This document shows positions 1,017-64,000 of a stretch of DNA of 64,000 bases, in pieces. Each line of letters begins with the position of its first letter. Position 1 is the stretch's first letter. A model generated the notes under the pieces. It saw only the letters and a program-made list of their open reading frames with translations. It was not told where the DNA came from and ran no database searches. Origin of the DNA: an uncultured virus (IMG/VR IMGVR_UViG_3300011006_000550) (Duplodnaviria > Heunggongvirae > Uroviricota > Caudoviricetes); IMG/VR virus record IMGVR_UViG_3300011006_000550, one strand, 5' to 3'. The translations under genes and the position numbers were made by a program.

Positions 1017-1238
1017 ATGAAACTGTGCAAGGTAGATACTCACAGACTCTGGCTGAGTAACAGAGAAGCAGCCAAATATCTCGGAGTCAGCAAAGACTGG
1101 CTCAAGGATCGTCGTCTCGATGGCACACTGCATTACTCGAAGGTCGGAAACACAATCTTCTACATCAAGTCGGAGATTGATAATCTGATCAGAGAAGGTG
1201 CAGTGTCAGGAAAAGACTTATTCAAACATACATCATAA
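1017..1238 (+). CDS. excisionase-like helix-turn-helix protein
   Basis: WLSNREAAKYLGVSKDWL...YSKVGNTIFYIKSEID matches the MerR/Xis-type HTH pattern. Confidence 0.8.
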   Translation: MKLCKVDTHRLWLSNREAAKYLGVSKDWLKDRRLDGTLHYSKVGNTIFYIKSEIDNLIREGAVSGKDLFKHTS

Positions 1239-35771: not shown

Positions 35772-35797
35772 GGCGGGAAATTACTCCCGCCTTTTTT
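35770..35797. terminator. intrinsic terminator, probably bidirectional
   Basis: AAGGCGGGA-aattac-TCCCGCCTT-TTTT between convergent genes. Confidence 0.75.
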
Positions 35798-48311: not shown

Positions 48312-48361
48312 GATGTTCTAATTTCTAAGTTAATATTGATGATTTCAATGTTATCCTTTAG

Positions 48362-48434
48362 TGGCGGGAAGCGGACTCGAACCGCTGACCTCAAGGCTAT
48401 GATCCTCGCAAGCTACCAACTGCTCCATCCCGCG
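48362..48434 (-). tRNA. tRNA-Met(CAT), initiator-like
   Basis: CGCGGGA/TCCCGCC acceptor with unpaired C1, anticodon loop AT-CAT-AG, T arm AGCGG-TTCGAGT-CCGCT; no encoded CCA. Confidence 0.85.
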
Positions 48435-48519: not shown

Positions 48520-48570
48520 GCAAAAATATGAATAAAAAATGTATAAAACAAATATTTTTGCGTATTTTTG
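48520..48570. promoter_or_regulatory. divergent promoters for the head-tail operon and the terminase operon
   Basis: TATTTTTG -7 boxes on minus (48521-48528) and plus (48563-48570) strands. Confidence 0.55.
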
Positions 48571-48579
48571 CACAAAAAT

Positions 48580-50283
48580 ATGAATATAATGGAGAAGTTT
48601 TCAGGATTAAAAATGCCCGATGGTGAGCCAATTCTGACTCAGGAATATATCAACTCCCTCCAACAGCAGGCTATAGCAAAAAAACTAAGGAATGCTTACG
48701 TGCCGCAAGCTGGAGGTCAGGAGAATATGCTCGCTATTGACGTGGATATTCTGATATGCGGAGGAAGCCGTGGAGGATCGAAGTCTTTCTCCCTTCTCAT
48801 GGAAGCCCTCAAGGACATTCTCAACCCCGATTTCCATGCTGCCGTGTTCCGAAACAACAAGAAGGCGATGGAGAAACTGATACGAGACTCCCGCAAGCTC
48901 TATTCTCAGTTCGGCACCTACAACAAGTCGCAGTCGGATATGACCTGGAACTTCACGGCTGGAGGTACGCTTGGCTTCTACTATCATGATGACTCCGACG
49001 ATGATTTCAAGGAGCGTTTTCAGGGACAGGAATATGCCTATATCGCCATCGACGAGATCACGCATATCTCTTATAAGAAGTTCAAATACCTCACCACCTG
49101 TAACCGTAATGCCTACGGCATTAGAAACAGATTCTGGGGAACGTGTAACCCTGATCCGCGTTCTTGGGTTAGACAGTTCGTTGACTGGTGGATCGACAAA
49201 GACGGATATATCGATCCCGCAAAAGACGGTAAGGTACGCTATTGCTTCATGAAGGGTGAGCGCATCAATCAGATTGTCTGGGGTGACAGCAGACATGAGG
49301 TTTACCTCAAATGTAAAGACGATATTGATGAACTCTGGAAGCCTGAGTTTGATGCCCTCGGACTCGATAAGGAGGAGACGATGGTAATGTCTGTGGCCTT
49401 TGTCCGTGCAGACCTCGCACAGAACCCAATGCTGCTTCTTTCTGACCCGTCCTATCTGTCACGACTGGCTCAGCAGGACAAAGGCCAAGTTCTACGCGAC
49501 CTCAAGGCAAACTGGAATGCCTCGGAGGCTGGCGACGATATGATCTCATACGACGAGCTGGAATCGATATTCTCAAATCCGGCTCAGTATGGTGACGGCA
49601 AGCGACGGTGTACGGCCGATATTGCACTTGAAGGTGGTGATAACCTCGTCATGTACCTGTGGATCGGATGGCATGTGGCAGACTTCTGCTGCATCAACGT
49701 AAATTCCAAGACCGCTGTGTCGGTCATCAGAAGGAAACTAAGGGAGTGGGGAGTGGCAGAAGAGGATTTCTGCTATGACTATCAGGGTATCGGACAGCTT
49801 GTGAAGGGATTCTTCCCAGAGGCCATACCGTTTAACAACCAGTCCGCTCCCATCGCAGAAGACGATGATGACTACGAGGGCGTGAAGTATCTCTATAAGG
49901 ACCTCAAATCGCAATGCGCGTACATTATTTATCGTAAACTCAAGGAAATGGGACTCTCATTCGAGGAGAATCTTCTCGATACGAAAGTCTCAGGAAACGG
50001 CTACGAGGATATTCTCTTTAGGGACGTTCTGCAGAAGGAACGTATGTCGCTCAGACGCGATCCAGATACGAAAGACAAGGGCTTCTGTCTTATGCCCAAG
50101 AAGAAGTCGAAACTGATTGTAGGACACTCACCTGACTGGTGGGAATCTCTGTATTTCCGTGCTTACTTTGACATTGCCCAGCCCGTTCAGCTCAACATTG
50201 AGAATGACTGGATGCTTGGTGCCGAAATGGATATGGATATGGTCGAAGACGATGATTTTGATTATGAAATGGATTTTAATTAG
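48580..50283 (+). CDS. terminase large subunit
   Basis: GGSRGGSKS Walker A, YIAIDE Walker B, GTCNP, DIALEGGD nuclease motif, SPDWWES. Confidence 0.92.
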   Translation: MNIMEKFSGLKMPDGEPILTQEYINSLQQQAIAKKLRNAYVPQAGGQENMLAIDVDILICGGSRGGSKSFSLLMEALKDILNPDFHAAVFRNNKKAMEKLIRDSRKLYSQFGTYNKSQSDMTWNFTAGGTLGFYYHDDSDDDFKERFQGQEYAYIAIDEITHISYKKFKYLTTCNRNAYGIRNRFWGTCNPDPRSWVRQFVDWWIDKDGYIDPAKDGKVRYCFMKGERINQIVWGDSRHEVYLKCKDDIDELWKPEFDALGLDKEETMVMSVAFVRADLAQNPMLLLSDPSYLSRLAQQDKGQVLRDLKANWNASEAGDDMISYDELESIFSNPAQYGDGKRRCTADIALEGGDNLVMYLWIGWHVADFCCINVNSKTAVSVIRRKLREWGVAEEDFCYDYQGIGQLVKGFFPEAIPFNNQSAPIAEDDDDYEGVKYLYKDLKSQCAYIIYRKLKEMGLSFEENLLDTKVSGNGYEDILFRDVLQKERMSLRRDPDTKDKGFCLMPKKKSKLIVGHSPDWWESLYFRAYFDIAQPVQLNIENDWMLGAEMDMDMVEDDDFDYEMDFN

Positions 50284-50291
50284 TATAGTGT

Positions 50292-51962
50292 ATGACAAAA
50301 AGCTTAGATTTTAAAGAAATCCTTGTGCGCAATCCTGTATACAAGGTGTTGCCAAGCGACTCAAATCTGAAATTTGAGACGTATCAAGGTGTTGACATGT
50401 CGGAGCCTGACGATCCGCTGAAGCTGCAAGTTTATACGCAGTCGCAGATGCTTCGTGAGTATTATCCTTCAGGTCACAATATCAATAATCCGATTCTGTA
50501 CCCTGACGTGTGGAAGAAGGCACCAGTGCCGGGAAAGCCTAACAAGGCACGCTATTTCCGTCAGCCTATCACGCGCGTCTCTCTTGCTTTCCAGCGTATC
50601 ATCAAGATCAAGGCCAACGTCCACATCTGCGGAAACGATGCTCAATTTGAGCTTGCATCACCCGAGAGAGACGAGAAGAAGACGCTGAAAGATACATTGT
50701 CACTGCTTGAGTTCAAAGAGGGCTGGCTCACGATGGGAATGGAAGAGCGTCTGTATGATGCTGTCGATTCCATCCATACCGTATCTGATGCGGCCATCGT
50801 AGGTTACTTCGATGATGAAGGGGAACCACAGGCGAGGGTATTCTCTTTCATCAACGGCGATAAGCTCTATCCGCATTACGATTCCATCACTGGCAAGATG
50901 AAGCTCTTCGCCCGCAAGTACCGTGATCTTGATGAAGACGGAAAGAGCACGACCGAGTGGGTAGAGGTGTGGGATAACAAGTATCTCTACCGTTACAAGC
51001 GCGACATCAACAGCAACGAACTCATTGAGAAATTCAAGGGCTTCTTCGGACTTGGTGGATTCAAGATGGTTGGTGAGCCAGTAGAACACGGATTCCCGTT
51101 TATTCCCGTAGCCTATCATGTGAACACCGAAGGTCCTGTGTGGGCTTTCTCTCAGGACACCATCGAGAAATACGAGGAGGCAATGTCTTACTTCTTCGAG
51201 AACAACAAGGCATACGCTTTCCCGATCTTCTATGCCAAGGGAAAGGGCGTGAAGATTCAGGGCAATATGAACGGTGCCGTCAAGGCCGTTGCCATCACGG
51301 ACCCGAAGGGAGAGGCTGGCTTCTTGAATCAGGCCGATGTCTCTGCATCCTACAACACCTTGCTCACGAAGCTCTACGATCTGATTTACGAGCAGTCCTT
51401 TGCCGTCAAGCCGCCCGAATTGAAGTCCGGCGATCTGCCAGGCGTAGCCGTCAAGCTGCTTTTCAGCCCTGCAATAGAACTGGCCATCGGTGGCGTTGCC
51501 CACTATCAGGACTTCCTTGAGCAGTGTGTCCGCATTGTCAAATACGGATGGGGATATAAGATCAACAAGGCCGCTACGCTTATGACATTGCCTATCAAGT
51601 CATGGTTTGAGCCGTATATCCATCAGAATGATTCAGAGCTGATGCAGAACCTCCGCATCGGTGTGCAGGATGGGTTTATCTCCAAGCAGACGGCATCTGA
51701 GCGTGCATCGAAGTACACCAAGAATGACGAGACAGACCGCATCCTCAAGGAATACAAGCAGATGCAGGAACTTGACCTTCTCTTTGAGACCAAGAAGAAG
51801 AAGGCCGAGGTCGAAGCAGAGATTGAAAAAGAGAAAGCCATTGCCAAGGTCAATCCGAAGCAGGGTAATGTCCGCACAGGAAACGGTCGCAACCGCACCA
51901 CCGACGAAAACGGTAACCACCCTGGCGAAAACAACTGGGATGATTGGGACAAAAATCACTAA
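50292..51962 (+). CDS. portal protein (SPP1-like)
   Basis: 556 aa after TerL; HGFPFIPVAY, GVAVKLLF, GFISKQTA. Confidence 0.82.
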   Translation: MTKSLDFKEILVRNPVYKVLPSDSNLKFETYQGVDMSEPDDPLKLQVYTQSQMLREYYPSGHNINNPILYPDVWKKAPVPGKPNKARYFRQPITRVSLAFQRIIKIKANVHICGNDAQFELASPERDEKKTLKDTLSLLEFKEGWLTMGMEERLYDAVDSIHTVSDAAIVGYFDDEGEPQARVFSFINGDKLYPHYDSITGKMKLFARKYRDLDEDGKSTTEWVEVWDNKYLYRYKRDINSNELIEKFKGFFGLGGFKMVGEPVEHGFPFIPVAYHVNTEGPVWAFSQDTIEKYEEAMSYFFENNKAYAFPIFYAKGKGVKIQGNMNGAVKAVAITDPKGEAGFLNQADVSASYNTLLTKLYDLIYEQSFAVKPPELKSGDLPGVAVKLLFSPAIELAIGGVAHYQDFLEQCVRIVKYGWGYKINKAATLMTLPIKSWFEPYIHQNDSELMQNLRIGVQDGFISKQTASERASKYTKNDETDRILKEYKQMQELDLLFETKKKKAEVEAEIEKEKAIAKVNPKQGNVRTGNGRNRTTDENGNHPGENNWDDWDKNH

Positions 51963-51965
51963 GCT

Positions 51966-52517
51966 ATGGATATAAACGTATCATCAAAACTTAATAAGAT
52001 AGCCCGTAACTACAAACTGACTCCTGAACAGCTTGCATTTGCCGATCTCGTTACGCAGGGATGGCCGGAGGAGGATGCTTGGGCTGTGGCTATCAGAACA
52101 GGCACAACGACATGGAACCGCACGGCATTGAAGGCCGAGGTGGCGAAGTTGCTGGCATCGGAACAGGTGCAACTACGCATTTCCGAAAACAAGGAGGTGC
52201 TGCGACAATCACAGATAGAGAAGATACAACAGGACATGAAAGACAATGCAGACGAACTTCTTGAACTGGCAACGAACAAGGAGAAGAAACTCATTGAACT
52301 GCAGTCCATCCTCAAAGACCTCAAACCCGGTTCCACCGAGTACAACAAGGTCAATGACCAGATCATCAATATCTCACGAATGAAGCAGAACGAAGTCAAG
52401 ACGGATGACAAGACCATACACTATTATCTTCCTGTGTCATATCCGAAGGGCTGTCAGGACTGCCTTTATTCACGTTGCGACCAGTGCAAATACAAGAAGG
52501 AATCGGAAAACAAATAA
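51966..52517 (+). CDS. putative terminase small subunit
   Basis: LTPEQLAFADLV...EDAWAVA...AKLL...VQLRI TerS-like N-terminal helices; CxxC...CxxC tail. Confidence 0.5.
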   Translation: MDINVSSKLNKIARNYKLTPEQLAFADLVTQGWPEEDAWAVAIRTGTTTWNRTALKAEVAKLLASEQVQLRISENKEVLRQSQIEKIQQDMKDNADELLELATNKEKKLIELQSILKDLKPGSTEYNKVNDQIINISRMKQNEVKTDDKTIHYYLPVSYPKGCQDCLYSRCDQCKYKKESENK

Positions 52518-52547
52518 CTTCAACGCTATCTTTGTCATATCAATATG

Positions 52548-52579
52548 AGGGGAACCACTCGCGAGAACAGTTCCCCTTT
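52548..52579. terminator. terminator-like hairpin between convergent blocks
   Basis: AGGGGAAC...GTTCCCCT. Confidence 0.55.
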
Positions 52580-52581
52580 GA

Positions 52582-52998
52582 TTATATACTTATTTCTTCA
52601 AACCGCCATTGACTACGGCCCTTTCTGTTATGTTTGCGGATAATGTGTTTCATCAGTTTTCGCCTTAAAGGATAGTCGTGCTGTCTCTGCGTGATAAAGC
52701 TCTTGACCTCAAGCATCACATATTCATTTGTCTCACAGTCAAAATAGATGAAGTCTGGAGTATATCGGGCCTCACGCTCTTCAATGACCTTTTTTTCTAT
52801 CCGCTTAACCTTTGTCTTGAGTTGCTTTTCTACAACAACAGTCTCAGCCAGTTCGGGGATGATTAGAAAATGATTATTGCTTCTGTGAAGACCACGTATA
52901 AGCCCAGCATCCTCTAATACGCCATACTTCTGTTCAACCACTTTCTCTATCTTAGAGTCGTAGCTTCCTTGCTTTTGGGCACCAAATTTATTTGTCAT
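52582..52998 (-). CDS. DUF1064-like PD-(D/E)XK endonuclease
   Basis: NKFGA...YDSKIE...YTPDFIY...LEVKS. Confidence 0.7.
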   Translation of the reverse strand: MTNKFGAQKQGSYDSKIEKVVEQKYGVLEDAGLIRGLHRSNNHFLIIPELAETVVVEKQLKTKVKRIEKKVIEEREARYTPDFIYFDCETNEYVMLEVKSFITQRQHDYPLRRKLMKHIIRKHNRKGRSQWRFEEISI

Positions 52999-53195
52999 AG
53001 AAGTTTCTTTCTAAGTTTGGTAATGGTTTCACAGATTTTCCCCAACTGCTCTGATACCATTGTATCATTGCACACGGGGACGAAGTTAGGCATTTCCGTT
53101 CCGTTCTCGATGGCACAGCAGATATTGTCAATGGTGTCACAAACTCTGGTATGGTCCTCGATAATCTCAATGACATTCTTCTCAATTTCCATCGC
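52995..53195 (-). CDS. hypothetical protein
   Basis: approximate start at the A(A)MEIEKNVIE region; coupled to neighbours. Confidence 0.45.
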   Translation of the reverse strand, partial: AMEIEKNVIEIIEDHTRVCDTIDNICCAIENGTEMPNFVPVCNDTMVSEQLGKICETITKLRKKLL

Positions 53196-53772
53196 TGCCT
53201 CCCTTCTCTTCCTGTTGTGAATCGGCAACCGTCTTCGACATGTCAACGATAATTGCCTTGGATTCCTCTTTGGCTTTCAATTCTTCGAGAATCTTGTCAT
53301 CCTCGGCCTTCTCCTCTGGGGTCTCTGCATTTTTTCTCAATGCAGTCTGACGTTCTATCAAGGCTTTCAGGGCGTTGCCTTTGTCGGCATAGTAGATACT
53401 GTCACCCTGTACTGTGGTGTCTGTCATCCACATACCGAACAGGTGGGCAAAGTCGGCGATGCTCTCATACTCAGGCTTGCGTTTCTCCTGAGCCGCAAGC
53501 AGGGCCAGAGGCAGAACACGGTCTATATAGAGATAGACACCAGTGTTACAGCAGAACTCAACACTCCAGATCTGACTGATGGCCTCCACTTTGATATAGG
53601 GCAGACCGCTACGTGTCAGCTGTTTCTTTACTTCGGGGTGAATGTCCTTGTCTTCACGGATAGACTTCAACTGTTTCTTCGTCAGCGTCTTCGTGTACTT
53701 GAGGACGGTGTAGTTCCCCACCTGAATCTTTTTGCCAAAAGGCAATACCAGAATTTCTTGTTTCTCTTCCAT
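53182..53772 (-). CDS. hypothetical protein
   Basis: 196-aa ORF. Confidence 0.7.
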   Translation of the reverse strand: MEEKQEILVLPFGKKIQVGNYTVLKYTKTLTKKQLKSIREDKDIHPEVKKQLTRSGLPYIKVEAISQIWSVEFCCNTGVYLYIDRVLPLALLAAQEKRKPEYESIADFAHLFGMWMTDTTVQGDSIYYADKGNALKALIERQTALRKNAETPEEKAEDDKILEELKAKEESKAIIVDMSKTVADSQQEEKGGSDGN

Positions 53773-53773
53773 G

Positions 53774-55297
53774 TTAATCGTCTTCTTTTATGAATGTTCC
53801 TTTTTCTTCCTTGTATTCAATCTCCATGTCGGCAGTACGGATGACGAAGGGCTGACTGAGCCTGTCCTCGTTACAGCCGTAGATGATATAGCGGTAGCCC
53901 TCCTTGAAGTGCTTCTTGCCGAAACCGAACCTTCCCATCGTTTGGCCGAAGAGTTGTCTTGACGGCATATCGACATCGTTATCCTTGCAGAACTGCTCGA
54001 GACTCTTATACAGATCCTGTGTGGCGATGGTAACGGATTCCTCATGCAAGGCACCTGGCTCTTTGCGCATACGGTATGAGTTGATCCATGCAAGCACGGG
54101 ATTCATCTGTAACTGCGCAAGAAGGATCTGTCTTCTGTTACCCTCAGACGAAGGGAACACAAATTTTCTACGCTTCAACTCCCTGCAGCCTCTCAGGATC
54201 CAGTTGAAGATACCCGGGTATTCTTCAACAAGCTCCCGTGACAAAGCAGGATTCTGTCTGTCCTTGGGTATCGTGATCTCAAAGGTGATGAATTGCAGCC
54301 TGCGGATGAAGCCAAGACTCTGATCGTCGGAGTAGGGCAGCTCGTTCAAGTTGAAGATAAGGAACGGGATATTATAATTCTCCTTCACGTCCTCACCCAG
54401 TTTCCTGTCCGTGACACTCTCACCGCTCACGATTCTCTTGAATACACCAGTGCGCTTTCTGCCAAACGTCCGTTGGTCCGAGTCCGAAGACCAATTAAAG
54501 ATAGCCTCACGCAGCAGCCTACGCGCACGCATACCCTCGTCACCCGTTGCCGTCAAATCATCATAGTCAAGGCCAGAGATCCTTTCCTTGCCGAAGATGC
54601 CGATGGCAGTATCATAGATCGTGCTCTTGCCGTTAGCACCGGCACCAAGAAGGATAAGGCACAGCTCTATCTTCGAGGCGTTCTTACCCTCATAGGAGTT
54701 ATAGACAGTACCACGCTCCATCAGTCCCAGACCAAGGAACATCTGCAGGATCAGGCGTGAGTTCTTATCCGGCAGAACCTCATGCAGAAAATTGTTCCAC
54801 TTGTTACACTTCGCATTCTCCTTATACTCGTAGGGATGATAATATGTAACATGGAACTCTGGGCTGAAAGGAAACAGCATGTACTTTCTCAGGTCCAGCA
54901 CACCGTTCTTGAAGGCAATGAGATCATGCCTCGGCAACAGAGGGTTATAGTAGCGGATGATGTCGATGAAGTACTTCTTGCATATTCCCTTATCACCGAT
55001 CATAGGCACCACCCTCAGATGCTCAAGCAACAGGTCATAGGCTGTGATAATCAGTTCCTCACGGATGGCAACATATATCTTATCGTCATAGAGGTAGAAG
55101 CTGCCATCATAGAACTTGATGTCACAATCCTTTGCAAGCATCCTGATCTTCTCGATGAAGTCAAGTTTCAGATTCTGGAACTGCTCGGAGGTCCTGTAAC
55201 CCCAGCGGCCCTTGAACTTCTCGAAATTGAAGTCACCATTGGAGCAGAGCCTCAGCAGCCCGCCGTAGATCTTATCAATAACTGTACTGTCTCTCAT
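53774..55297 (-). CDS. P4/D5-family primase-associated SF3 helicase
   Basis: IAFKNGVLDL (D5 N-terminal), GAGANGKST Walker A, KRIVSGE, IRRLQFITF. Confidence 0.88.
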   Translation of the reverse strand: MRDSTVIDKIYGGLLRLCSNGDFNFEKFKGRWGYRTSEQFQNLKLDFIEKIRMLAKDCDIKFYDGSFYLYDDKIYVAIREELIITAYDLLLEHLRVVPMIGDKGICKKYFIDIIRYYNPLLPRHDLIAFKNGVLDLRKYMLFPFSPEFHVTYYHPYEYKENAKCNKWNNFLHEVLPDKNSRLILQMFLGLGLMERGTVYNSYEGKNASKIELCLILLGAGANGKSTIYDTAIGIFGKERISGLDYDDLTATGDEGMRARRLLREAIFNWSSDSDQRTFGRKRTGVFKRIVSGESVTDRKLGEDVKENYNIPFLIFNLNELPYSDDQSLGFIRRLQFITFEITIPKDRQNPALSRELVEEYPGIFNWILRGCRELKRRKFVFPSSEGNRRQILLAQLQMNPVLAWINSYRMRKEPGALHEESVTIATQDLYKSLEQFCKDNDVDMPSRQLFGQTMGRFGFGKKHFKEGYRYIIYGCNEDRLSQPFVIRTADMEIEYKEEKGTFIKEDD

Positions 55298-55754
55298 TTA
55301 TTTTCTGTGTTACATTTTTCCACAACTTACCATTTTTGATTCTTCTTATGATAGTTGGATCAACTGAGTATTTTCGAGCCAATGACCTATTAGAAGATTT
55401 CTTATCATTATAGATGGAAATGACTATTTGTTCTGTCAATTTACTCCTGCCATTATTCTCCCCTATGGCAGATCTACCACGAATGACCCTGTCATGTACA
55501 TTATCGGAGTGGGTGCCAACACAAAGATGATTCGGATTGATACACTCTGGATTGTCGCAATTATGTCTTATGACATATCCTACAGGTATTTCCCCATTAA
55601 ATGCCATATAAACAAGTCTGCTTAACGCAACAACATGTCCTTCGACTTTTATTACAGGGTAACCGCGATCCTTTGCTTTGTGAGAGGTACATAACCAACA
55701 ACCTCTATCTGTTTCCTTGTAACTGATCTTTCTTCCTTTAATCGTCAAATCCAT
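55275..55754 (-). CDS. HNH homing endonuclease
   Basis: CWL...RHNCDNPECINPNHL...N; GENNGRSKLTE plus HTH tail. Confidence 0.88.
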   Translation of the reverse strand: MDLTIKGRKISYKETDRGCWLCTSHKAKDRGYPVIKVEGHVVALSRLVYMAFNGEIPVGYVIRHNCDNPECINPNHLCVGTHSDNVHDRVIRGRSAIGENNGRSKLTEQIVISIYNDKKSSNRSLARKYSVDPTIIRRIKNGKLWKNVTQKINERQYSY

Positions 55755-55771
55755 ATCTTTTGTTTTAATGT

Positions 55772-55856
55772 AGGGGAGGCAAGGATCGAACTTGCAACCT
55801 AACGTTCACGACGTTGCTCTACCAGTGTCAGACTACCGACTTATAGCTACTCCCCG
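55772..55856 (-). ncRNA. atypical tRNA-like RNA (possible His-GTG) with a hairpin inserted in the D loop
   Basis: GGGGAG/CTCCCC acceptor, T arm GCAAG-TTCGATC-CTTGC, AACG-TCGTGAA-CGTT anticodon arm, GTCGG-tagt-CTGAC in the D loop. Confidence 0.65.
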
Positions 55857-55863
55857 TACCGTT

Positions 55864-56151
55864 TTAATATTTCTTGAAAAGGAAACTCCTAAACTCAACA
55901 TCCTTCATGTTTGTGAGATCCGAAATGAGGAATGCCTGACCTATCAACAGAAAGATGTTGATACCAGGCACAAACGCTAATGGAAATGTTACGATGAGTT
56001 TCCACAGCGGGAACTTCACCTTATCGCCCTTATTCCAAGTACCATCCCAGCTTTTGTTATCTTTCGTATGATAGGAACGGAAGAAGATCACCCACCACAG
56101 ATACAATGTGATGAAGATAATCAGATAGTAGAACAGAATGGCCCAGATCAT
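55864..56151 (-). CDS. membrane protein (2 TM)
   Basis: two hydrophobic segments. Confidence 0.65.
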   Translation of the reverse strand: MIWAILFYYLIIFITLYLWWVIFFRSYHTKDNKSWDGTWNKGDKVKFPLWKLIVTFPLAFVPGINIFLLIGQAFLISDLTNMKDVEFRSFLFKKY

Positions 56152-56978
56152 TTCCCAATCACTTTTGAAACGTCAAGAATCTGGCCGTTGCCTCCCATGA
56201 TGACAGGCACCTTGCCATCCCATTTCTCAATGAAGTCCTCTTGGATGATCATCGGACTCAGAGAAGCCGCAATAGTCCTATTATAGTAAGCCTCAGCATC
56301 GGCCTTGATCTTCATGGCCTTAGCATTACCCTCTGCCTTTGCAACGGCAATCTTCGCGTTAGCCTCAGCCTCCTTTACCTCGTTCTCAGCCTTCAAGGCA
56401 CTCTGAATGGCAGCGTTCTTGGCATCGATCATAGATGTCAGAGACGCAGGAGGCGTGATCTTACTTGTGAACTCCTCAACGATGAAGCCCTCAGCCATCA
56501 GCGATTTCTCAAGACGTGCCCTAACGTCTCTCTCGAAGTTCGCACGGTTAGACATGAGTGAGTCAGACGTATAGCTGTTGGCGCACGTTCTGTATGCCTC
56601 GTAGATACAGGTCTTGATGTACCCGTCTTCAAGCTCCTTGATGTCAACACGGTATTTCACGTAGATGTCGCAAGCCTTCTCGGGATTGATACGATAAGCA
56701 ATGGTAGGATCCATTTCAAACAGAGAGGCATCCTTGGCATTCACCTTGATAGTCTCATACTGCTTGCGCTGAGTGAATGTAGGATAGGTGAACACGGACG
56801 TTGAAAACGGGTTATAGAACACCCAGCCCTTACATGTTCCCTCAACAGCTCCGTAGTCCTGAGTGTCAGAACTCCACTTGTGGAACTTAACACCAACCTC
56901 ACCACCGTCAACGACGGTACACGATGTGAAACTCAATGAGGCGACAACCGCCATCATCATAAAAATCAATTTCTTCAT
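56148..56978 (-). CDS. SPFH/band 7 (prohibitin-like) lipoprotein
   Basis: SFTSC lipobox, VDGGEVGVK, AEANAKIAVAKAEGNA coiled coil, IEKWDG. Confidence 0.88.
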   Translation of the reverse strand: MKKLIFMMMAVVASLSFTSCTVVDGGEVGVKFHKWSSDTQDYGAVEGTCKGWVFYNPFSTSVFTYPTFTQRKQYETIKVNAKDASLFEMDPTIAYRINPEKACDIYVKYRVDIKELEDGYIKTCIYEAYRTCANSYTSDSLMSNRANFERDVRARLEKSLMAEGFIVEEFTSKITPPASLTSMIDAKNAAIQSALKAENEVKEAEANAKIAVAKAEGNAKAMKIKADAEAYYNRTIAASLSPMIIQEDFIEKWDGKVPVIMGGNGQILDVSKVIGK

Positions 56979-57011
56979 GTTTTTAAATTTTAATTAGTAA
57001 ATATGGTATAA

Positions 57012-57743
57012 TCACCAGTTGAAAACTCTCGCCCAGAAACCACGATTGTTAAGACGCTCTACTTCATCCTTGCCCTCCTGCCATCCAGTCTCGGCAATGC
57101 TGAGCTTATCTCTCAGACGCTTAAGTTCATCCTCCATCAGCTTGTTTGACTGATTCAACGTGGTATTCTTCTCACGCAGATCACGATTGTCACCCTCCAG
57201 ACGCTTCAACTCGGCAGCATACTTCTCGTTGCAAGCCTTCACGTCAGACAGATGATCTTTCAGCTCCACCTTCTCCTTGCAAATCTGGTCGTTGACTTCA
57301 TCAAGAAGACGAACCTTTGCCTCCAAGACACGCACCTGAGAAAGTGTAGGACGTACACGCTTCTTTACCACCTTGAACGGCAGAGGACCCTTGGTGTTCT
57401 TACGAGCCTGAACATTCTCCGTCTCTATACCCTTATAGTTCTCATCCGCCTTGATGGTACATGTCTTTGCATCATACACAAGACCATTGGCCTTTAACGT
57501 ATCGAAGAAAATCTTCTTCTCCTTCTCGGTAGCATGACGCGCAAAACGCATATCAGTACCCGAAGGAGCATCCGATTCACAATACATCGTCAGACCACAG
57601 TAGAACACACCTTCACTACCCTCTGGCACGGTACTACCAGAAAAACGCTCTCCAGTCAGAATACGGATATTACCATAACCGCTGACAATCACATCACCTT
57701 TCTTGAAAATCCTGTCTTTGCCTATCATAAGTCGGCCCTCCAC
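57012..57743 (-). CDS. coiled-coil hypothetical protein
   Basis: long heptads ending RGFWARVFNW. Confidence 0.7.
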   Translation of the reverse strand: MEGRLMIGKDRIFKKGDVIVSGYGNIRILTGERFSGSTVPEGSEGVFYCGLTMYCESDAPSGTDMRFARHATEKEKKIFFDTLKANGLVYDAKTCTIKADENYKGIETENVQARKNTKGPLPFKVVKKRVRPTLSQVRVLEAKVRLLDEVNDQICKEKVELKDHLSDVKACNEKYAAELKRLEGDNRDLREKNTTLNQSNKLMEDELKRLRDKLSIAETGWQEGKDEVERLNNRGFWARVFNW

Positions 57744-57946
57744 ATTTTATTTTTAACTTCTTCGTAATCTTCTACCACGTCTATGCTATGGCCACTGTAT
57801 TCAATAGTGGTGAAGCGAGGCTTAACGCCCCAGGACAGATGAGTCTCTGGATTAGCATAGACCGCTTCAATAGAGTCAGTCCTGATCGACAGCTTTTCAC
57901 CATCGCTCAGAGCAGTCACTTCAATGAATCCCGCCAGATCAACCAT
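57725..57946 (-). CDS. small hypothetical protein
   Basis: 73 aa; IEAV...T.IEY...IDVVEDYEEV pattern. Confidence 0.6.
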   Translation of the reverse strand: MVDLAGFIEVTALSDGEKLSIRTDSIEAVYANPETHLSWGVKPRFTTIEYSGHSIDVVEDYEEVKNKMWRADL

Positions 57947-58574
57947 TCTTCAATAACTCAATGGCTTTCTCCAGAGCCTCATTGACCACATCAGCACGCA
58001 GACAACGCTCGAACTTACGGCCCTTAGCCACCTTCTCACGCTCTGCCCTGTAACTCTCCAGCAGCTTGATACAACGCTCCTTCGTCATCTTCGACTCAGG
58101 CACAAGAGTATCTATGTGCAAAGGAGCAACACGCATGAAGTCACGCACTCGAAGATCATCAACGGCCATACGAATACCCTTCATGCAATCCGTCAGCTTC
58201 TTGCACGTTTCCTCAGAAATACCAAACTTGATGTCGATAGGATTAACATACCGCTTGCCGTCCATACCATACATACTACCGTCGGCAAACCTGAAATACA
58301 TGCCGGTACCAGTAGCAGTAATCTCTACCTGATGCGATACCTTGATCCTGTTTAGATACGTGTCTTCCACCTCATGAAGCATACACTCAGGAAAACACAG
58401 AATGAAATCCTCGCCCTTATAGCGAACGTAAACCTCATAACCGTAACCAAGGAACTTCTCGATCCTTCCTACAGCATGAGTCAGATTCAATACAACTAAC
58501 TTGTCAGGCATCTGAACCTTAGCCTCGTCTGCATTGAAACCGCAAAGATCACCTTTCCTAAATTTCGGGTCCAT
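57939..58574 (-). CDS. hypothetical protein
   Basis: 211 aa, first gene of the leftward block; TATCTTTG box on the minus strand at 58757-58764. Confidence 0.7.
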   Translation of the reverse strand: MDPKFRKGDLCGFNADEAKVQMPDKLVVLNLTHAVGRIEKFLGYGYEVYVRYKGEDFILCFPECMLHEVEDTYLNRIKVSHQVEITATGTGMYFRFADGSMYGMDGKRYVNPIDIKFGISEETCKKLTDCMKGIRMAVDDLRVRDFMRVAPLHIDTLVPESKMTKERCIKLLESYRAEREKVAKGRKFERCLRADVVNEALEKAIELLKNG

Positions 58575-59540
58575 CTTTGGTTAGTGAACGAACTTGAACG
58601 ATATTTATAGACCTTTTCAGAACTTCTGTCACCAGTAAACCCCTGATAACCAGCAAATTCCGCCACACAAAACAACGAAATTCACGATTTCTGGATTTCC
58701 TGGCCCCAAGACGTTACAATCTATAGTACCTATCTATATCTAACCAAATTGCGATGCAAAGATACAACTTTTCATTAATATCATTCACTATTTATACAAA
58801 AAGTGCATATTTATTAGGATTTTTTAATGAACGATATTTTTTCTACACTCTGAGATCGTTAAGAATGATGAACGATTTCGTGACATCTGACGAATTGTTA
58901 AAACGGCCCAAAAATTCAGGAAAAAAATAATTTTGAGGCGACCGCCGCCACAAATCTCGTGCCAAAAAAGGGGGTGTAGGGGGTATTTTAAGGGTATTAA
59001 AGAGTATTTAACACTCTCTGCAAAAATTCATTAAAATTTGCTGAAATAGCCCTATTTTACACATATTTAACACTATTCCCGATATTATACCTAATAATGT
59101 AGGCTGGTTATTTAATATTTTTTAACTTTATTTCTTTGGTTTAACAAATTTTTAGGATTCGCGCCACCATGTCATGGTAATTTATTTTTACGCCACATTG
59201 TCATAAGATTTTTCTTTACATTATGATTGATTTATATCAAGTATGATTATACATTTATGCAATAACCTTCTGGAAACGCCTTTAAACAGGGGATTTCATA
59301 AAATTGAATATGCAATAATTTTGCGTTCCGAAATAAAGATTCTTTACACTTGAAATGTCAATATTTAATCATTATTTAACCTATAATAACATTGTCGGAT
59401 TGTGCGCCCACACATCACGATTTTGTAAACATAATTTAACTAACATGGTCGTAACATTAAGTAATATTTAGTTGTGTGCCTACACAGGCCCTTTGGGAAT
59501 GCCTTTGTACAGGGCATTATTTTGTAAATATATTTCACTA

Positions 59541-59571
59541 TTGCAAGTATGGAATTTATTTCGTAACTTTG
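59541..59571 (+). promoter_or_regulatory. Bacteroidetes sigma-A-type promoter
   Basis: TTGC (59541) then 19 bp then TAACTTTG (59564-59571). Confidence 0.65.
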
Positions 59572-59653
59572 TACTATAAGAAATGAATATTTAACCACTG
59601 CCAAACGGGGAAACGCAGCGCACCACAAAGGAGCGGAACAGCCCGAAAGATTT

Positions 59654-60268
59654 ATGTGTACATTAAACGAGACCTTAAAGAAGGTAGGAGAAAACGCCAA
59701 AGGTAGTGTCAAGGTAGAGAAAATGAAGGCCGAAATTGCCAAGGTTGCAGCCAGGTATTACGCACCTTATCGCCACGCTCTTATTAGTGAGTTGTTCAAG
59801 GGTGCCAGTGAGGACGAACTTAAGGCAGAACTTGCAGCCTTTGACGCTGACACCAAGAACGGCACACAGTTAGTTATCATCGCAGCCGACACCAAGGTGA
59901 ACGCAAACGGACAACTCACAGATGATGAGGGGAACATTCTCGAAAATGCAGTATCTTTCGCCACCGTGATTTCTACCAACAAAGACGGTGAAATCACAAA
60001 GGAGCGTCAAGTGTTCCGTGTTCCCTACATCGCAGACACCGACCAGCGTAACAACCGTATTGTTGCCTACTGGGTGCGTTTCCGTGAGACGCGCGAGGAG
60101 TCATTTGCTGCAGCCCGTGCCGCCAAGGTTGACTCTATTAAGAAGGAGTTGCAGCCGTTGTCCGTTCAGGTTGAAACATTCACCAAGTACAACGTGCCCG
60201 TACCCGCTGAACTTTCAGAGAAGGTGGATGCTCTCAAGGCTGAACTTTCAAAACTGGGTGCGGAATAA
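59654..60268 (+). CDS. hypothetical protein, probably highly expressed early gene
   Basis: 204 aa, strong codon bias, own promoter and terminator. Confidence 0.8.
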   Translation: MCTLNETLKKVGENAKGSVKVEKMKAEIAKVAARYYAPYRHALISELFKGASEDELKAELAAFDADTKNGTQLVIIAADTKVNANGQLTDDEGNILENAVSFATVISTNKDGEITKERQVFRVPYIADTDQRNNRIVAYWVRFRETREESFAAARAAKVDSIKKELQPLSVQVETFTKYNVPVPAELSEKVDALKAELSKLGAE

Positions 60269-60295
60269 ACGCAGACGGAAACAGACGGAAAAGAC

Positions 60296-60326
60296 GAAGG
60301 TAGGGAAATTCCTACCTTCTCTTTTT
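60296..60326 (+). terminator. intrinsic terminator
   Basis: GAAGGTAGG-gaaatt-CCTACCTTC-tcTTTTT. Confidence 0.75.
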
Positions 60327-60353
60327 GTGCCCTGTCTTTCCAGGCCCTAAGAA

Positions 60354-60413
60354 ATCCCCTGACGAGTCTTTGAGAATTAAGACGAAACCACAGATCTGTT
60401 CTGTGGTCGGGAT
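60354..60413 (+). ncRNA. hammerhead ribozyme (type I topology)
   Basis: ATCCC-CTGACGA-GTCTT-tgagaatt-AAGAC-GAAA-CCACAGA-tctgt-TCTGTGG-TC-GGGAT: full core, three perfect stems, GUC site. Confidence 0.9.
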
Positions 60414-60470
60414 AATCCTTTTGTGTTTTTCCTCAGTGTATTGTCCGGCTGAGCGAACGGACTGAACGAT

Positions 60471-60839
60471 TTGAACGAACGAACGATGAATAAGAGTGAA
60501 CGATTGATGAACGAGCGAATGATGTTTGTCACAAGACGTGGCCAGTCTGCTGAGATTCAGAGAAAGAACTGGCTGAGAAGACTTAGAACAAAGAGGTCTG
60601 CCGATCCCGAAGGATGGGTGACTGCAAAATTTGTTGGTCAGATGGGATTTACAAACTTTAATTTTTGTGCACATTCATGGAGAGCTATCAAGATGGAAGC
60701 CAAAATTATCGCTTCACTTCAACATGAGCCTATCGAAGTTTTGGATGCAAATACACTGATTCCATTATTCATATGTCTTCCTTGCTTTGATTCGCGTGAA
60801 GATATTATTTCATACACAGAACGTGCATTTCAGAATTAA
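60471..60839 (+). CDS. hypothetical protein (true start probably MMFVTRR)
   Basis: ORF between ribozyme and structured region; its first codons derive from GAACGA repeats. Confidence 0.5.
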   Translation: MNERTMNKSERLMNERMMFVTRRGQSAEIQRKNWLRRLRTKRSADPEGWVTAKFVGQMGFTNFNFCAHSWRAIKMEAKIIASLQHEPIEVLDANTLIPLFICLPCFDSREDIISYTERAFQN

Positions 60840-61500
60840 GTACGATAACACAGAGCACAGGCGCAAGCCTGTAATGTGGCTCACCTCATGGTGAACGGTT
60901 GCAAGCCCGTGCAAACAACATTCAAACGGTGAAAATGTAACGTGGAGGGGCGCAAGCCATAGCCACTACCGCACAGAGAAACCGAGCGACAACGAGCGTT
61001 TTGAACGACTTCCAGCTAATTACTTGATTTTTGTCGCCAGTGGGAGTATTGCAGCCGACCGGCGGGGTGAAACTAAAGTCCCGCAAGCCCCGCAAGGGAC
61101 GAGTGACTGTTACAAATCATATTCTTAGATTATTTCTCCCGTGAGGGAGTACGATAATAACGGATAGCTACTGTCCGAGAGCGACTTGAGCAATCAAGTA
61201 CGATGAACGAGTGAGTTTATCGTGGTGGTTCCCGCCAAGAGTACGAAAGCACATTTAATCACTTTAGGATGCTACGCAGTATGCAGGGCTTTGATGGTCA
61301 GGCAGCTGGCAATGAAAGACATTAAGGGTGCAAGACCCATAGCATAAAGAACGGTTTGACAGTACGATTCATAAAACTGCCACACGGAACGGTTGCAAGT
61401 AAAGAGGCCCGAAAGGGGACTTGCAGGAGAGAACGAGTACGATAACAAAAACGAAGTTCCGGAGACTACGGGAGAGAGCAGGGAAACCTGCTCTCTCTTA
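60840..61500 (+). ncRNA. putative large structured non-coding RNA or RNA cluster
   Basis: no credible ORF; many GNRA-capped hairpins on the + strand; repeated AGTACGAT. Confidence 0.6.
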
Positions 61501-61529
61501 CTTTCAACCAATTAAAAACAAGTACGATT

Positions 61530-61739
61530 ATGATTAAGAGAATTGCTTTGCATCTTATCGCCCTGGTGGTACTGATGCCGTGTATGTTGGTGTTTAATAT
61601 CAGCGAGAAGTTATGGGTAAATATCCTTGGACTGATTTATTGTTGCTATTTGTACATCATCCTGAACGAGAGCGATGCAGCCAAGCGTTTTGTTCGTCGT
61701 TACTACCATGAGATCCTCCGTTTGCAGAACATGTTGTAG
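61530..61739 (+). CDS. small membrane protein
   Basis: two hydrophobic segments; ends TAG. Confidence 0.65.
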   Translation: MIKRIALHLIALVVLMPCMLVFNISEKLWVNILGLIYCCYLYIILNESDAAKRFVRRYYHEILRLQNML

Positions 61740-61796
61740 TTTCTCTGATTTTTGTGGCAGAAGGCTGCAAAAATCGCTCACTTTCAACCACTAAAA

Positions 61797-61904
61797 ATGA
61801 ACAATATGTATTACGTAGAGATTGACAACGGAGAGAGATTCTATTTTGGCGACGATTTCAACGCTGCCGCAGTGTTCAACCATGCCGTGAATGACAGGCA
61901 TTAG
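61797..61904 (+). CDS. 35-aa peptide (not in the ORF track)
   Basis: MNNMYYVEIDNGERFYFGDDFNAAAVFNHAVNDRH; stop lies in the conserved intergenic element. Confidence 0.55.
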   Translation: MNNMYYVEIDNGERFYFGDDFNAAAVFNHAVNDRH

Positions 61905-61954
61905 TCTTCTTTCGGCCATTGTATGGCCGAGCTATTAACCAAAGTACGATTATT

Positions 61955-62158
61955 ATGACAGACAGAAAATTTGAGCATCTTACTGATGTGGTTGATTTCT
62001 TCAGTTGGAAGCAGTTCGACGAGAAAGAGAGGTTTTCTTTGAGTGAGGACCAGCGAAGACAGCTTACCGAGGTACGCGACGAACTCGAAGACTATTCGAG
62101 GTCTGGCGATGCGGTTGCAGATCTTTGGCTTGAATGTGCGAACGAGTTGCTGAATTAG
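61955..62158 (+). CDS. small acidic hypothetical protein
   Basis: start MTDRKF just after the element; ends TAG. Confidence 0.65.
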   Translation: MTDRKFEHLTDVVDFFSWKQFDEKERFSLSEDQRRQLTEVRDELEDYSRSGDAVADLWLECANELLN

Positions 62159-62204
62159 TCTCTTGGAGCCTGTTGGCTCCGCTTATAACCAAAACTTACA
62201 TGAT

Positions 62205-62465
62205 ATGAAAAGAAATGCTTTACTTAGGACGAGTGCTATCTTCAAGTGTATTGTCACATTCAAGAACGGCACTCACGCAGTTATCAGAATGACCATTGAC
62301 ATGGTAGCGAAAATCACGTATGAGTTCAGGGAGTTTCAGCGTAACATCTTCTCAGAGACATGGCTTCTCTGGGTGAGCGCAACGGAGATTCTTAACATCA
62401 CAGAGATTCGTTCTTGCAAGTTCATCAACGAAAACACTGGTGTTGAGTTCCTTACGATTGATTAG
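62205..62465 (+). CDS. small hypothetical protein
   Basis: start MKRNALL just after the element; ends TAG. Confidence 0.65.
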   Translation: MKRNALLRTSAIFKCIVTFKNGTHAVIRMTIDMVAKITYEFREFQRNIFSETWLLWVSATEILNITEIRSCKFINENTGVEFLTID

Positions 62466-62514
62466 TCTTTTGGGAATCTTGCATGATTCCCGCTATTCAC
62501 CAATATTCAAGAGT

Positions 62515-62940
62515 ATGTTACAATCAGAGTTTTACGACAGGACGCACGTTACTCTCTCAGCAGAGCAGTACGGCGAGGTAGAGAACATCTACAACAGGTG
62601 TCAGATGGATAAGGACGAGTTCTGCAGGCTGTGGCTTGAGAATCGTGACAACAAAATCATCAAAGAACTGATGGACCACATCATGAACACCGAAAAGAAG
62701 TTGTATTTTGCAAAGGAAAAAGCTGCCAAATGCGACAAAGCGATTAATGACGAGCGCGAAAAATGTAAGGAGCACATTGAGAGCCTTGGGCGCAAGGTCG
62801 TTGCGAACATCGACGATGAAACAAAGTTATACGATGCCATTGAAGAGGAGTTCACGCTTGATTTCATCATCAAGGTCAAGTTGCAGGAAAACATGGATCT
62901 CGATCTGCACGAACGGCAGCACCTCATTGAGAAACTTTAG
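62515..62940 (+). CDS. hypothetical protein
   Basis: start MLQSEFYDRT...MDKDEFCRLW; ends TAG. Confidence 0.7.
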   Translation: MLQSEFYDRTHVTLSAEQYGEVENIYNRCQMDKDEFCRLWLENRDNKIIKELMDHIMNTEKKLYFAKEKAAKCDKAINDEREKCKEHIESLGRKVVANIDDETKLYDAIEEEFTLDFIIKVKLQENMDLDLHERQHLIEKL

Positions 62941-62984
62941 TCTTCGCAGCCGAACGGCTGCACTACAACCAAACTATCAGAATT

Positions 62985-63281
62985 ATGAAATATATGGCAA
63001 CGTTTGATGCTTGGAAGTTGGGAACTTTCGACATCATTTTGGAAAAGTACGATGCAGATTGCTGTTCTCACCCAGGCCCGTGTGACTTGGATTGTGAGCG
63101 AACGATTAATCTTGATTATGTCAAAGAACAACTCAAGGAAATCACCTCTGAGCAGATCCGTCAGGTCTTGATAGACTATGGCCTTGAAGATGCCGACGAG
63201 AAAGACCGCAAGCAACTTGAGACGTATATTGTCTGGCTTGCAGCGGGTGACATCATAGACGGGAACTGTACTGAATGTTAG
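62985..63281 (+). CDS. small acidic hypothetical protein
   Basis: CSHPGPCD...WLAAGDI; ends TAG. Confidence 0.7.
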   Translation: MKYMATFDAWKLGTFDIILEKYDADCCSHPGPCDLDCERTINLDYVKEQLKEITSEQIRQVLIDYGLEDADEKDRKQLETYIVWLAAGDIIDGNCTEC

Positions 63282-63343
63282 TCTCTATCGGGCAGTGCCC
63301 GACTATAAACCAATTTAACTTATTATTAGAGGAGATATAGTTT

Positions 63344-63796
63344 ATGAAAGAAACATTTTGCCCTTACTGTGGTTCTGAGAATATTACTATTCAGGCTACA
63401 GACCTTTTAGAGTGTAATGATTGTAAAGAGTTGTTTACTCATGAAGATGTAGAACATAATATTCTTCGTGATAAAATCAGCAGCATCTGCTCTGCTTTCG
63501 AGGCAACTGAGGATAATCCCATTAACTGTATCAGGGAGGATGCTATGGAACTCCACATAGAAGGCATTACAGAAGCAGCACAGGGACTTTCTGAATCAGA
63601 GAAGCCACAGGTAAGCACTGTTTTCCATGATCCGGAAGGAATCGTGTGGATTACCTTTTTAGAATATCCTTTTGGGGGGTCGCCTTGTAACAGTGAACCA
63701 ATGGAACTTGATAGTATTTCTATCAATGATTCTCTGAAAGAAATTCTGTCGTGGCTTGAAGAAAACCTGAGTGTCAACGCTCTTGGAAGATGTTAG
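63344..63796 (+). CDS. zinc-ribbon-containing acidic protein
   Basis: CPYCGS...ECNDC; ends TAG. Confidence 0.7.
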   Translation: MKETFCPYCGSENITIQATDLLECNDCKELFTHEDVEHNILRDKISSICSAFEATEDNPINCIREDAMELHIEGITEAAQGLSESEKPQVSTVFHDPEGIVWITFLEYPFGGSPCNSEPMELDSISINDSLKEILSWLEENLSVNALGRC

Positions 63797-63841
63797 TCTC
63801 TATCGGGCATTCGCCCGAACTATTCACCAATATTTTTGATT

Positions 63842-64000
63842 ATGGAATTTGTTCACACAGAAATCAAGGAGCATCCTCTACGAGATTGTTTAATGTTGTG
63901 GATTCCAGAGCTTCCTTTTGTGCCTCCTTTGTTTGGAACAAAGAAGGAATTAGAAGAAGCGAGAGTATTTGCAGAACAAAAAGCAGAGGATTATCTTAAA
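63842..64000 (+). CDS. hypothetical protein, runs off the window
   Basis: ATG after the last element; MEFVHTEIKEHPLRDCLMLWIPELP... open to the window end. Confidence 0.55.
   Translation, partial: MEFVHTEIKEHPLRDCLMLWIPELPFVPPLFGTKKELEEARVFAEQKAEDYLK

Follow-up and report, generated by a model that had tools for sequence, protein, structure and literature searches.

A type I hammerhead ribozyme from an Rfam-invisible phage subfamily, paired with a twister-P5 ribozyme at a small gene of a gut phage

The phage window and its two-ribozyme cassette

The window, by which we mean the whole 64-kb stretch of DNA that was analysed, is, judged on its sequence, a tailed phage or prophage, and the host of the hammerhead locus is here called a siphovirus-like gut phage. 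Besides the packaging, head and tape-measure genes of Table 1, PHROG matches in the window include a primase-helicase and methyltransferases. Public runs that contain parts of the hammerhead region are labelled as bovine or other animal gut. The nearest record to the window (G001) has nothing that matches positions 52000-64000. Gene starts in the window lack Shine-Dalgarno words and lie within A/T-rich leaders. An ordinary tRNA-Met (CAU) gene is situated between the head genes and the terminase (48361-48434, minus strand), and a tRNA-like match was found at 1708-1811 on the plus strand (Rfam tRNA, 42.3 bits); the latter has good acceptor, D and T arms and about 42 extra nt replacing the normal anticodon arm, and it receives no ARAGORN call.

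A rightward operon contains the hammerhead; its genes are small and of unknown function, and it begins at 59654, 3' of a divergent intergenic region. Between the 204-codon ORF at the start of this operon and the ribozyme lies a terminator-like hairpin, of which the hairpin proper covers 60296-60319 with 10 pairs and carries the tail TCTTTTTGTG. No promoter was found in the interval from this hairpin to the ribozyme with a sigma-70-type scan, the model of which does not cover Bacteroidota promoters and which gave 12 matches in the region as compared to 11.6 by chance. In the leader that would start the 3' cleavage product, GUCCG (60443-60447) pairs with CGGAC (60458-60462), followed by a GAACGA run that extends up to the start codon.

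Between the two ribozymes lies a 117-codon ORF with no Pfam or PHROG family. A search of 5.8 billion proteins returned one near-identical cluster, and the protein patterns of the ORF matched only a window-like contig among viral contigs. Related loci, which were found by DNA similarity together with two short patterns, fall into four lineages: the window type (also IMG/VR contig L021/L121), G002 (L108/L124), L130 and L133. A further candidate, L129, was rejected as a relative, because it is an unrelated chance match to a 17-nt pattern. Homologues of the 117-codon ORF are present in G002 (43% identity, E 7e-19) and in L133 (48%, E 5e-29), and their occurrence in two other phages indicates that the ORF is real. 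Its N-terminus (60486-60590, plus strand) is rich in arginine and lysine and includes one tryptophan (RRGQSAEIQRKNWLRRLRTKR); we take this stretch, by resemblance, to recall arginine-rich RNA-binding peptides.

Ten nt past the stop codon of this ORF, and about 460 nt from the hammerhead, begins a twister ribozyme of type P5. The initial annotation of the locus had recognised the hammerhead but missed this second element, which makes the locus a two-ribozyme cassette. The match covers the full length of the Rfam model and possesses the conserved UAAUG, GC and CAAGCCCG segments. Its cut presumably falls between U60872 and A60873, within the conserved UAA, and the RNA predicted between the two cuts would be 464 nt long, with the 77-nt leader in front of the ORF and the initial 24 nt of the twister behind it.

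Table 1. Features of the window discussed in the text
Feature	Position	Strand	Basis or remark
Tape-measure protein	35796-42365	-	PHROG match
Major head protein	45668-47068	-	PHROG match
Large terminase	48568-50283		PHROG match
Portal	50292-51962		PHROG match
204-codon ORF	59654-60268	+	5' of the terminator-like hairpin
Terminator-like hairpin GAAGGTAGGG/CCTACCTTC with T-run	60296-60329	+	consensus scan; terminator function putative
A-rich 5' flank of stem I (AAGAA)	60349-60353	+	A60352 lies 7 nt before CUGA
Type I hammerhead ribozyme	60354-60413	+	sequence, fold, descriptor scan, model R1, covariation
Leader of the predicted 3' cleavage product, 77 nt	60409-60485	+	three-way alignment A5; also in L133
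117-codon ORF, arginine-rich N-terminus, bracketed by two ribozymes	60486-60839	+	homologues in G002, L133
Twister ribozyme, type P5	60849-60910	+	Rfam RF02684; scores 43.5 bits, gathering score 37.6
ORF-poor structured RNA region	60873-61515	+	fold z -3.87; synteny in G002, L130, L133
Hydrophobic ORF, 69 codons	61530-61739	+	after the non-coding region; AGTACGATT directly before ATG

The hammerhead and its subfamily

The hammerhead consists of three helices. In stem I, AUCCC (60354-60358) pairs with GGGAU (60409-60413); in stem II, GUCUU (60366-60370) pairs with AAGAC (60379-60383) around the loop UGAGAAUU (60371-60378); and in stem III, ACCACAGA (60387-60394) pairs with UCUGUGGU (60400-60407) around the loop UCUGU. 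The open stem is stem I, and the ribozyme is therefore of type I. Its core is made up of CUGACGA (60359-60365), GAA (60384-60386) and C17 (60408). The consensus of hammerhead cores is C3 U4 G5 A6 N7 G8 A9, G12 A13 A14 and a non-G at position 17; every one of these residues is present at the site, and the consensus as used here agrees with the Rfam consensus lines. The closing pairs are likewise canonical, with G60366-C60383 (G10.1-C11.1) in stem II and A60387-U60407 (A15.1-U16.1) in stem III.

Folding of 60350-60418 to minimum free energy (MFE) gives precisely this three-helix junction (-21.6 kcal/mol, z -3.0), and one of 200 shuffles equalled it. When both strands of the window were scanned with a descriptor, this was the one hammerhead site found. 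Among 200 Markov-shuffled windows, two had a match with loose stems (I at least 4, II at least 3 and III at least 4 pairs), and none at the observed stem lengths. The complete core and three stems described by the initial annotation are thus borne out by sequence, fold and shuffles. Its predicted cleavage after C60408 stands as well, the predicted scissile bond being that between 60408 and 60409, and so does its placement of the ribozyme about 30 bp past a terminator, the terminator-like hairpin being found 25-35 nt upstream.

Comparison by Infernal with the Rfam hammerhead models, which had been named as a check on the identification, gave scores below the curated cut-offs. At gathering thresholds, Rfam 15 makes no hammerhead call at 60354-60413; in E-value mode, the best match is to RAGATH-1-hammerhead (RF03152) with 29.3 bits against a cut-off of 56.3, and there is a partial match to Hammerhead_3 (RF00008) with 17.5 bits against 48.5. 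RAGATH-1 itself is marked by an upstream hairpin, a UAUAAAAU linker and a minimal stem II; membership in it was rejected on this score and because the hairpin insert of the model is empty here and stem II differs. The window hammerhead resembles RAGATH-1 in being type I, in the A-rich stretch 5' of stem I, and in its phage or gut context. It differs from the RAGATH-1 model in having no upstream hairpin (0 nt as opposed to 13) and, instead of a minimal stem II, a 5-bp helix with a conserved 8-nt loop.

Scores below the Rfam gathering thresholds are what one would expect if the motif only resembled a hammerhead, through decay or by chance, and did not cleave. We give this explanation hardly any credence. 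All core positions are canonical and none of 200 random windows equalled the site. The relative G002 keeps the site with a compensated stem III, and a covariance model (R1), constructed on 20 hammerheads from other phages with the window left out, matches the hammerhead independently with 65.9 bits (E 1.3e-19), which is the sole R1 match in the 64 kb. Moreover, at 20 other loci of the subfamily the hammerhead likewise escapes Rfam at gathering thresholds (0/20 detected), from which it follows that the miss is a gap in the Rfam models and not a defect of the window site.

The subfamily to which these hammerheads belong is widespread. In a blastn search against GenBank phages, the first 37 nt of the element were 94.6% identical in the crAss-like phages NC_055902 and NC_055903, which have the same stems I and II, and wholly different stems III that are still paired. 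A pattern that fixes only CCCUGAYGAGUCUU-N8-AAGACGAAAC was found in at least 118 viral stretches of IMG/VR, with crAss-like phages among the carriers, and in 41 stretches of species-representative bacterial genomes. Nearly all of the latter are gut Bacillota (Lachnospiraceae, Oscillospiraceae, Erysipelotrichales, Bacilli), to which one Bacteroides MAG is added. Routine annotation counts too few phage ribozymes, since the subfamily, invisible at Rfam thresholds, is present in at least 118 viral contigs. Some of the records are titled as cultured strains, namely Acetatifactor muris DSM 23669, Parablautia muri D42-62 and Lacrimispora xylanisolvens ASCUSBR21, which makes the mapping of 5'-OH ends and tests with core mutants feasible. 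A 30-nt DNA string of the subfamily consensus is absent from the literature text and from 11 supplementary files of Perreault 2011, which is not evidence of absence, since those files probably hold gapped RNA letters.

The loci examined contained 122 matches to the pattern. Among these, 88 distinct sequences can be read as complete type I hammerheads; the parse fails for four matches, which represent three distinct sequences, and the remainder are duplicates. The search with R1 yielded 101 matches from 91 sources, or 99 distinct rows. In these rows 97.8% of the cells pair and 11 of the 16 pairs are changed on both sides (332 cells), in an alignment that was fitted to R1, includes the 20 seed sequences and consists of related rows. 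None of 500 shuffles reaches the observed covariation, and partners slid out of register pair in 32-47%. The covariation is strong in stems I and III. The assertion that the site carries the hammerhead consensus accordingly holds at every position, and the site is a member of a large covarying phage subfamily. On the strength of sequence, fold and covariation we regard 60354-60413 as a genuine hammerhead of a widespread phage subfamily that escapes Rfam, and its cleavage as predicted.

Members of the subfamily share more than the core. Loop II is nearly fixed, with UGAAAAUU in 58 of the 88 members and UGAGAAUU in another 12, and an unpaired A is found 7 nt before CUGA in 86/88 (A60352 in the window). 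The nearly fixed loop II and the flanking A suggest a tertiary contact between the stem I flank and loop II, of the kind that hammerheads need to cleave fast at cellular Mg. Two or three copies of the hammerhead occur in L066, L013, L046, L023 and L093.

The position of the hammerhead relative to genes is also characteristic. An upstream ORF of at least 40 codons ends no more than 25 nt before CUGA in 38 of the 84 loci that have sufficient upstream sequence, most commonly at 6-7 nt. On the downstream side, the first ORF of at least 30 codons has a median start 39 nt past the cut among the 88 distinct members, by a naive ORF call; it starts within 60 nt of the cut in 70 of 87, and 52 of those 70 possess a Shine-Dalgarno-like word. 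Taken together, the upstream ORF ends and downstream ORF starts define the usual place of the subfamily as the junction of two cistrons. At six loci the stop codon of the upstream ORF is the UGA inside the CUGA box, so that the stop codon overlaps the catalytic core.

Related lineages and the exchange of ribozyme class

All four lineages keep the same order of terminator-like hairpin, ribozyme, leader, gene or genes, twister-P5 and structured non-coding RNA. One or two ORFs are bracketed. A long stretch poor in ORFs follows, with a small hydrophobic ORF after it; ORFs like the 69-codon ORF of the window were read by eye at the equivalent place in G002, L130 and L133. A hairpin lies 3' of the upstream gene in 4/4 lineages, the same one in the window, G002 and L130 (alignment A5) and a different one in L133. 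The leader is conserved in 4/4 lineages with its GAACGA run to AUGAA, and it is kept even before an unrelated ORF in L130. Its hairpin remains paired in three lineages despite double changes (GUCCG/CGGAC, GGCCG/CGGCC and GGGC/GCCC). The twister-P5 of the relatives scores 45.3 bits in G002, 43.0 in L130 and 46.3 in L133, with P1 stems that have changed and still pair.

The first ribozyme, in contrast, belongs to different classes. In G002 it is a hammerhead (R1, 60.7 bits) with the stem I of the window and a stem III that is different yet paired. At the same position, L130 possesses a twister-P1 (2440-2503, minus strand; 53.6 bits, E 5e-11) and L133 likewise (1053-1112, plus strand; 57.7 bits, E 1.4e-11). 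Both twister-P1 matches cover the full model length and score below the Rfam gathering score of 67.2, and R1 finds no hammerhead in L130 or L133. The twister-P1 of L133 precedes the 48%-identical homologue of the 117-codon ORF, that of L130 two ORFs unrelated to those of the window.

Nature thus offers a comparison, with a hammerhead in two lineages and twister-P1 in two at the same position, which argues that it is the cut itself that has been kept. Two unrelated ribozyme folds at one orthologous position, before the same leader, are the best evidence from this comparison that cleavage there is the selected function, and the sequences suggest that selection at the first ribozyme position acts on cleavage and not on the shape of the RNA or the sequence of its end. 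Of a type I hammerhead, 5 nt stay on the message after the cut; of a twister-P1, almost the whole ribozyme does. The exact 5' end of the message would, given the exchange of classes, not be critical.

The near-identical core of 32-37 bp could also be read on the DNA level, as a homology patch at module borders that serves the exchange of cassettes. The 94.6% identity over 37 bp to two crAss-like phages that are otherwise unlike the region would fit such a role, as would the fact that the bracketed genes and the ribozyme class differ between relatives. The covariation of stems I and III and the strict conservation of the catalytic residues point to selection on RNA, however; 37 bp are short for homologous exchange, and the swap of class cannot arise from homology at that ribozyme. 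We therefore judge a DNA patch to be highly improbable and return to selection for cleavage.

The region behind the twister (60873-61515) contains many GNRA-capped hairpins and AGUACGA words; a strong hairpin (61470-61498) closes it off ahead of the ORF at 61530. The window holds 14 copies of GTACGAT where 4.45 are expected, a number that none of 100 shuffles reaches, and six of these copies are in this region, all on the plus strand. The bin 60001-62000 contains 18 words that read [G/U]AACGA or GUACGA, as opposed to 0-5 in any other 2-kb bin. A block of 170 nt (61100-61275) is 85% identical to G002, in which it is duplicated. RNAalifold, with only four sequences, gave 38 pairs, three of them compensated, and a search of 60873-61515 in Rfam returned no family at E<=10. 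The region is a candidate for a new phage non-coding RNA, the 5' end of which would be set by the predicted twister cut. The relatives have more AGUACGA copies, some of which are in the loop of the P1 stem of the twister.

A more far-reaching reading, which we consider doubtful, makes the hammerhead an interchangeable part of a module composed of the hairpin, any self-cleaving ribozyme, a fixed GAACGA-rich leader, one or more exchangeable genes and twister-P5. This module would release a new class of structured RNA of about 640-1000 nt with AGUACGA words, to which the arginine-rich protein may bind, and the ribozymes would determine how much message there is relative to regulatory RNA once the hairpin has been read through.

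Predicted processing and comparison with known systems

In the reading we prefer, an active type I hammerhead and the twister-P5 probably free a single-gene message from a longer transcript by means of their predicted cleavage. Transcripts that pass the hairpin at 60296-60329 would take up the hammerhead fold and self-cleave after C60408. The upstream piece would keep the whole ribozyme and end in a 2',3'-cyclic phosphate, and the downstream piece would begin with 5'-OH-GGGAU, the 5-bp stem I releasing easily. A cut by the twister-P5 between 60872 and 60873 would then yield the 464-nt single-gene message with the leader and the 117-codon ORF, no longer coupled to the upstream gene or to the structured RNA behind the twister. 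RNA of the upstream gene would end at the terminator or at the ribozyme, and each piece could have a stability or translation of its own without recourse to host RNases.

Since the upstream hairpin is conserved and no promoter was found before the ribozyme, the ribozyme presumably acts on read-through transcripts; cleavage in vivo, read-through of the hairpin and a benefit to the phage are all what we infer. A 5'-OH on the RNA starting at G60409, as the initial annotation proposed, is a supported prediction: it would follow from hammerhead chemistry, and it fits the position of the subfamily just before a gene start.

Several observations weigh against release of a single-gene message by the two ribozymes. 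The T-run hairpin upstream may stop most transcription, the scores of the Rfam hammerhead models and of both twister-P1 matches stay sub-threshold, and the leader is longer, with its 77 nt, than the subfamily median and is devoid of a Shine-Dalgarno word. RNA data came from four public runs in the form of Logan contigs, which cannot show RNA ends. Most contigs of these runs that match the region represent the conserved core (60352-60388) inside contigs of other elements. Three contigs of read length, which come from two RNA libraries with possible carry-over of DNA, derive from the locus: 60437-60587 (X3), and 60524-60674 and 60838-60988 (X2). The last of these, 151 nt in length, spans the twister site uncut.

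The 5'-OH itself might be the object of selection, in that it shields the message from host RNases or sensors that depend on the 5' end, or marks it for a phage kinase or ligase, with the separation of cistrons being secondary. Both ribozyme classes at the position leave a 5'-OH, and the 3' products tend to begin with a hairpin: the released stem I strand is part of a 5'-terminal hairpin in 40 of 88 members as compared to 24.6 expected from shuffles, and the mean energy of this hairpin in the subfamily is -5.06 versus -3.02 kcal/mol in shuffled sequences. On the other side, the hairpin of the window itself is weak (-3.4 versus -3.3 for shuffles), no gene for an RNA kinase or ligase was noticed in the scanned subset of window ORFs, and nothing in these data separates such a role from plain processing. 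We regard selection for the 5'-OH as unlikely.

Very unlikely, in our estimation, is that a host ligase of the RtcB type joins the 5'-OH and the 2',3'-cyclic phosphate of the 464-nt RNA to form a circular mRNA. The chemistry of the ends would be suitable, in line with established ribozyme chemistry, and the MFE fold of the 464-nt piece pairs nt 12-15 with 443-446, which brings the ends near to each other. Complementarity of the ends is nevertheless at the level of chance (duplex -18.5 versus -15.9 +/- 3.5 kcal/mol in shuffled sequences, 111 of 500 shuffles being equal), and no back-joined contig was found in the RNA runs, the cover of which is thin. The corresponding piece of L130, moreover, has two other ORFs, and its twister-P1 leaves a different 5' end. 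Processing of a longer transcript into a single-gene message thus remains our preferred explanation.

Clustered hammerheads are known to flank one gene or a short block of genes in prophages, and some cleave in vitro and in E. coli (Perreault 2011, PMC3088659). Reviews continue to treat what ribozymes do in the DNA of phages and bacteria as an open question, with the processing of polycistronic RNA proposed and unproven (PMC6765202; PMC6155905). That such ribozymes occur near small phage genes with unsettled roles, as had been stated for this locus at the outset, agrees with these three sources. Like the prophage hammerheads of Perreault 2011 (PMC3088659), the ribozymes of the window lie between small non-conserved phage genes on one transcript, for which processing to gene length was proposed. 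Unlike the cases described there, the window pairs a hammerhead with a twister-P5, its first ribozyme follows a terminator-like hairpin and not directly a stop codon, and its second ribozyme heads a structured non-coding RNA of about 640 nt and not a gene. The gene cassette with two ribozymes is an already published layout, to which the orthologous swap of class and the repeat-rich RNA are added here.

Twister ribozymes, and the ribozyme-associated gene neighbourhoods that served to find pistol, hatchet and twister-sister, were reportedly described in Roth 2014 and Weinberg 2015. The window resembles these neighbourhoods in that a twister lies near a hammerhead by small phage genes and that different ribozyme classes occur at equivalent positions; it differs from them in that the exchange of classes is visible at a single orthologous position, before homologous genes and an unchanged leader. 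A resemblance also exists to the hammerheads in RNA genomes of eukaryotic viruses, in which a type I ribozyme lies just 5' of an ORF and the cut leaves a short leader, although those belong to RNA genomes of eukaryotic viruses and not to a DNA phage. The paper on them sets the hammerheads of DNA phages aside as already described.

Other RNAs typical of ribozyme neighbourhoods occur close to members of the subfamily. Within 1.5 kb of the hammerhead at 20 other loci, Rfam finds one pistol (L024, 1833-1900, minus strand), one twister-P5 (L062, 2475-2525, minus strand) and one RAGATH-16 (L032, 126-197, plus strand), all above their thresholds. In NC_055902 (L001, 1951-1981, plus strand), a second hammerhead-like core (CUGAUGAG) with a very short stem II, CGAAAC and an A-rich flank is located about 400 nt past the first hammerhead; this second core runs off the first base of the record.
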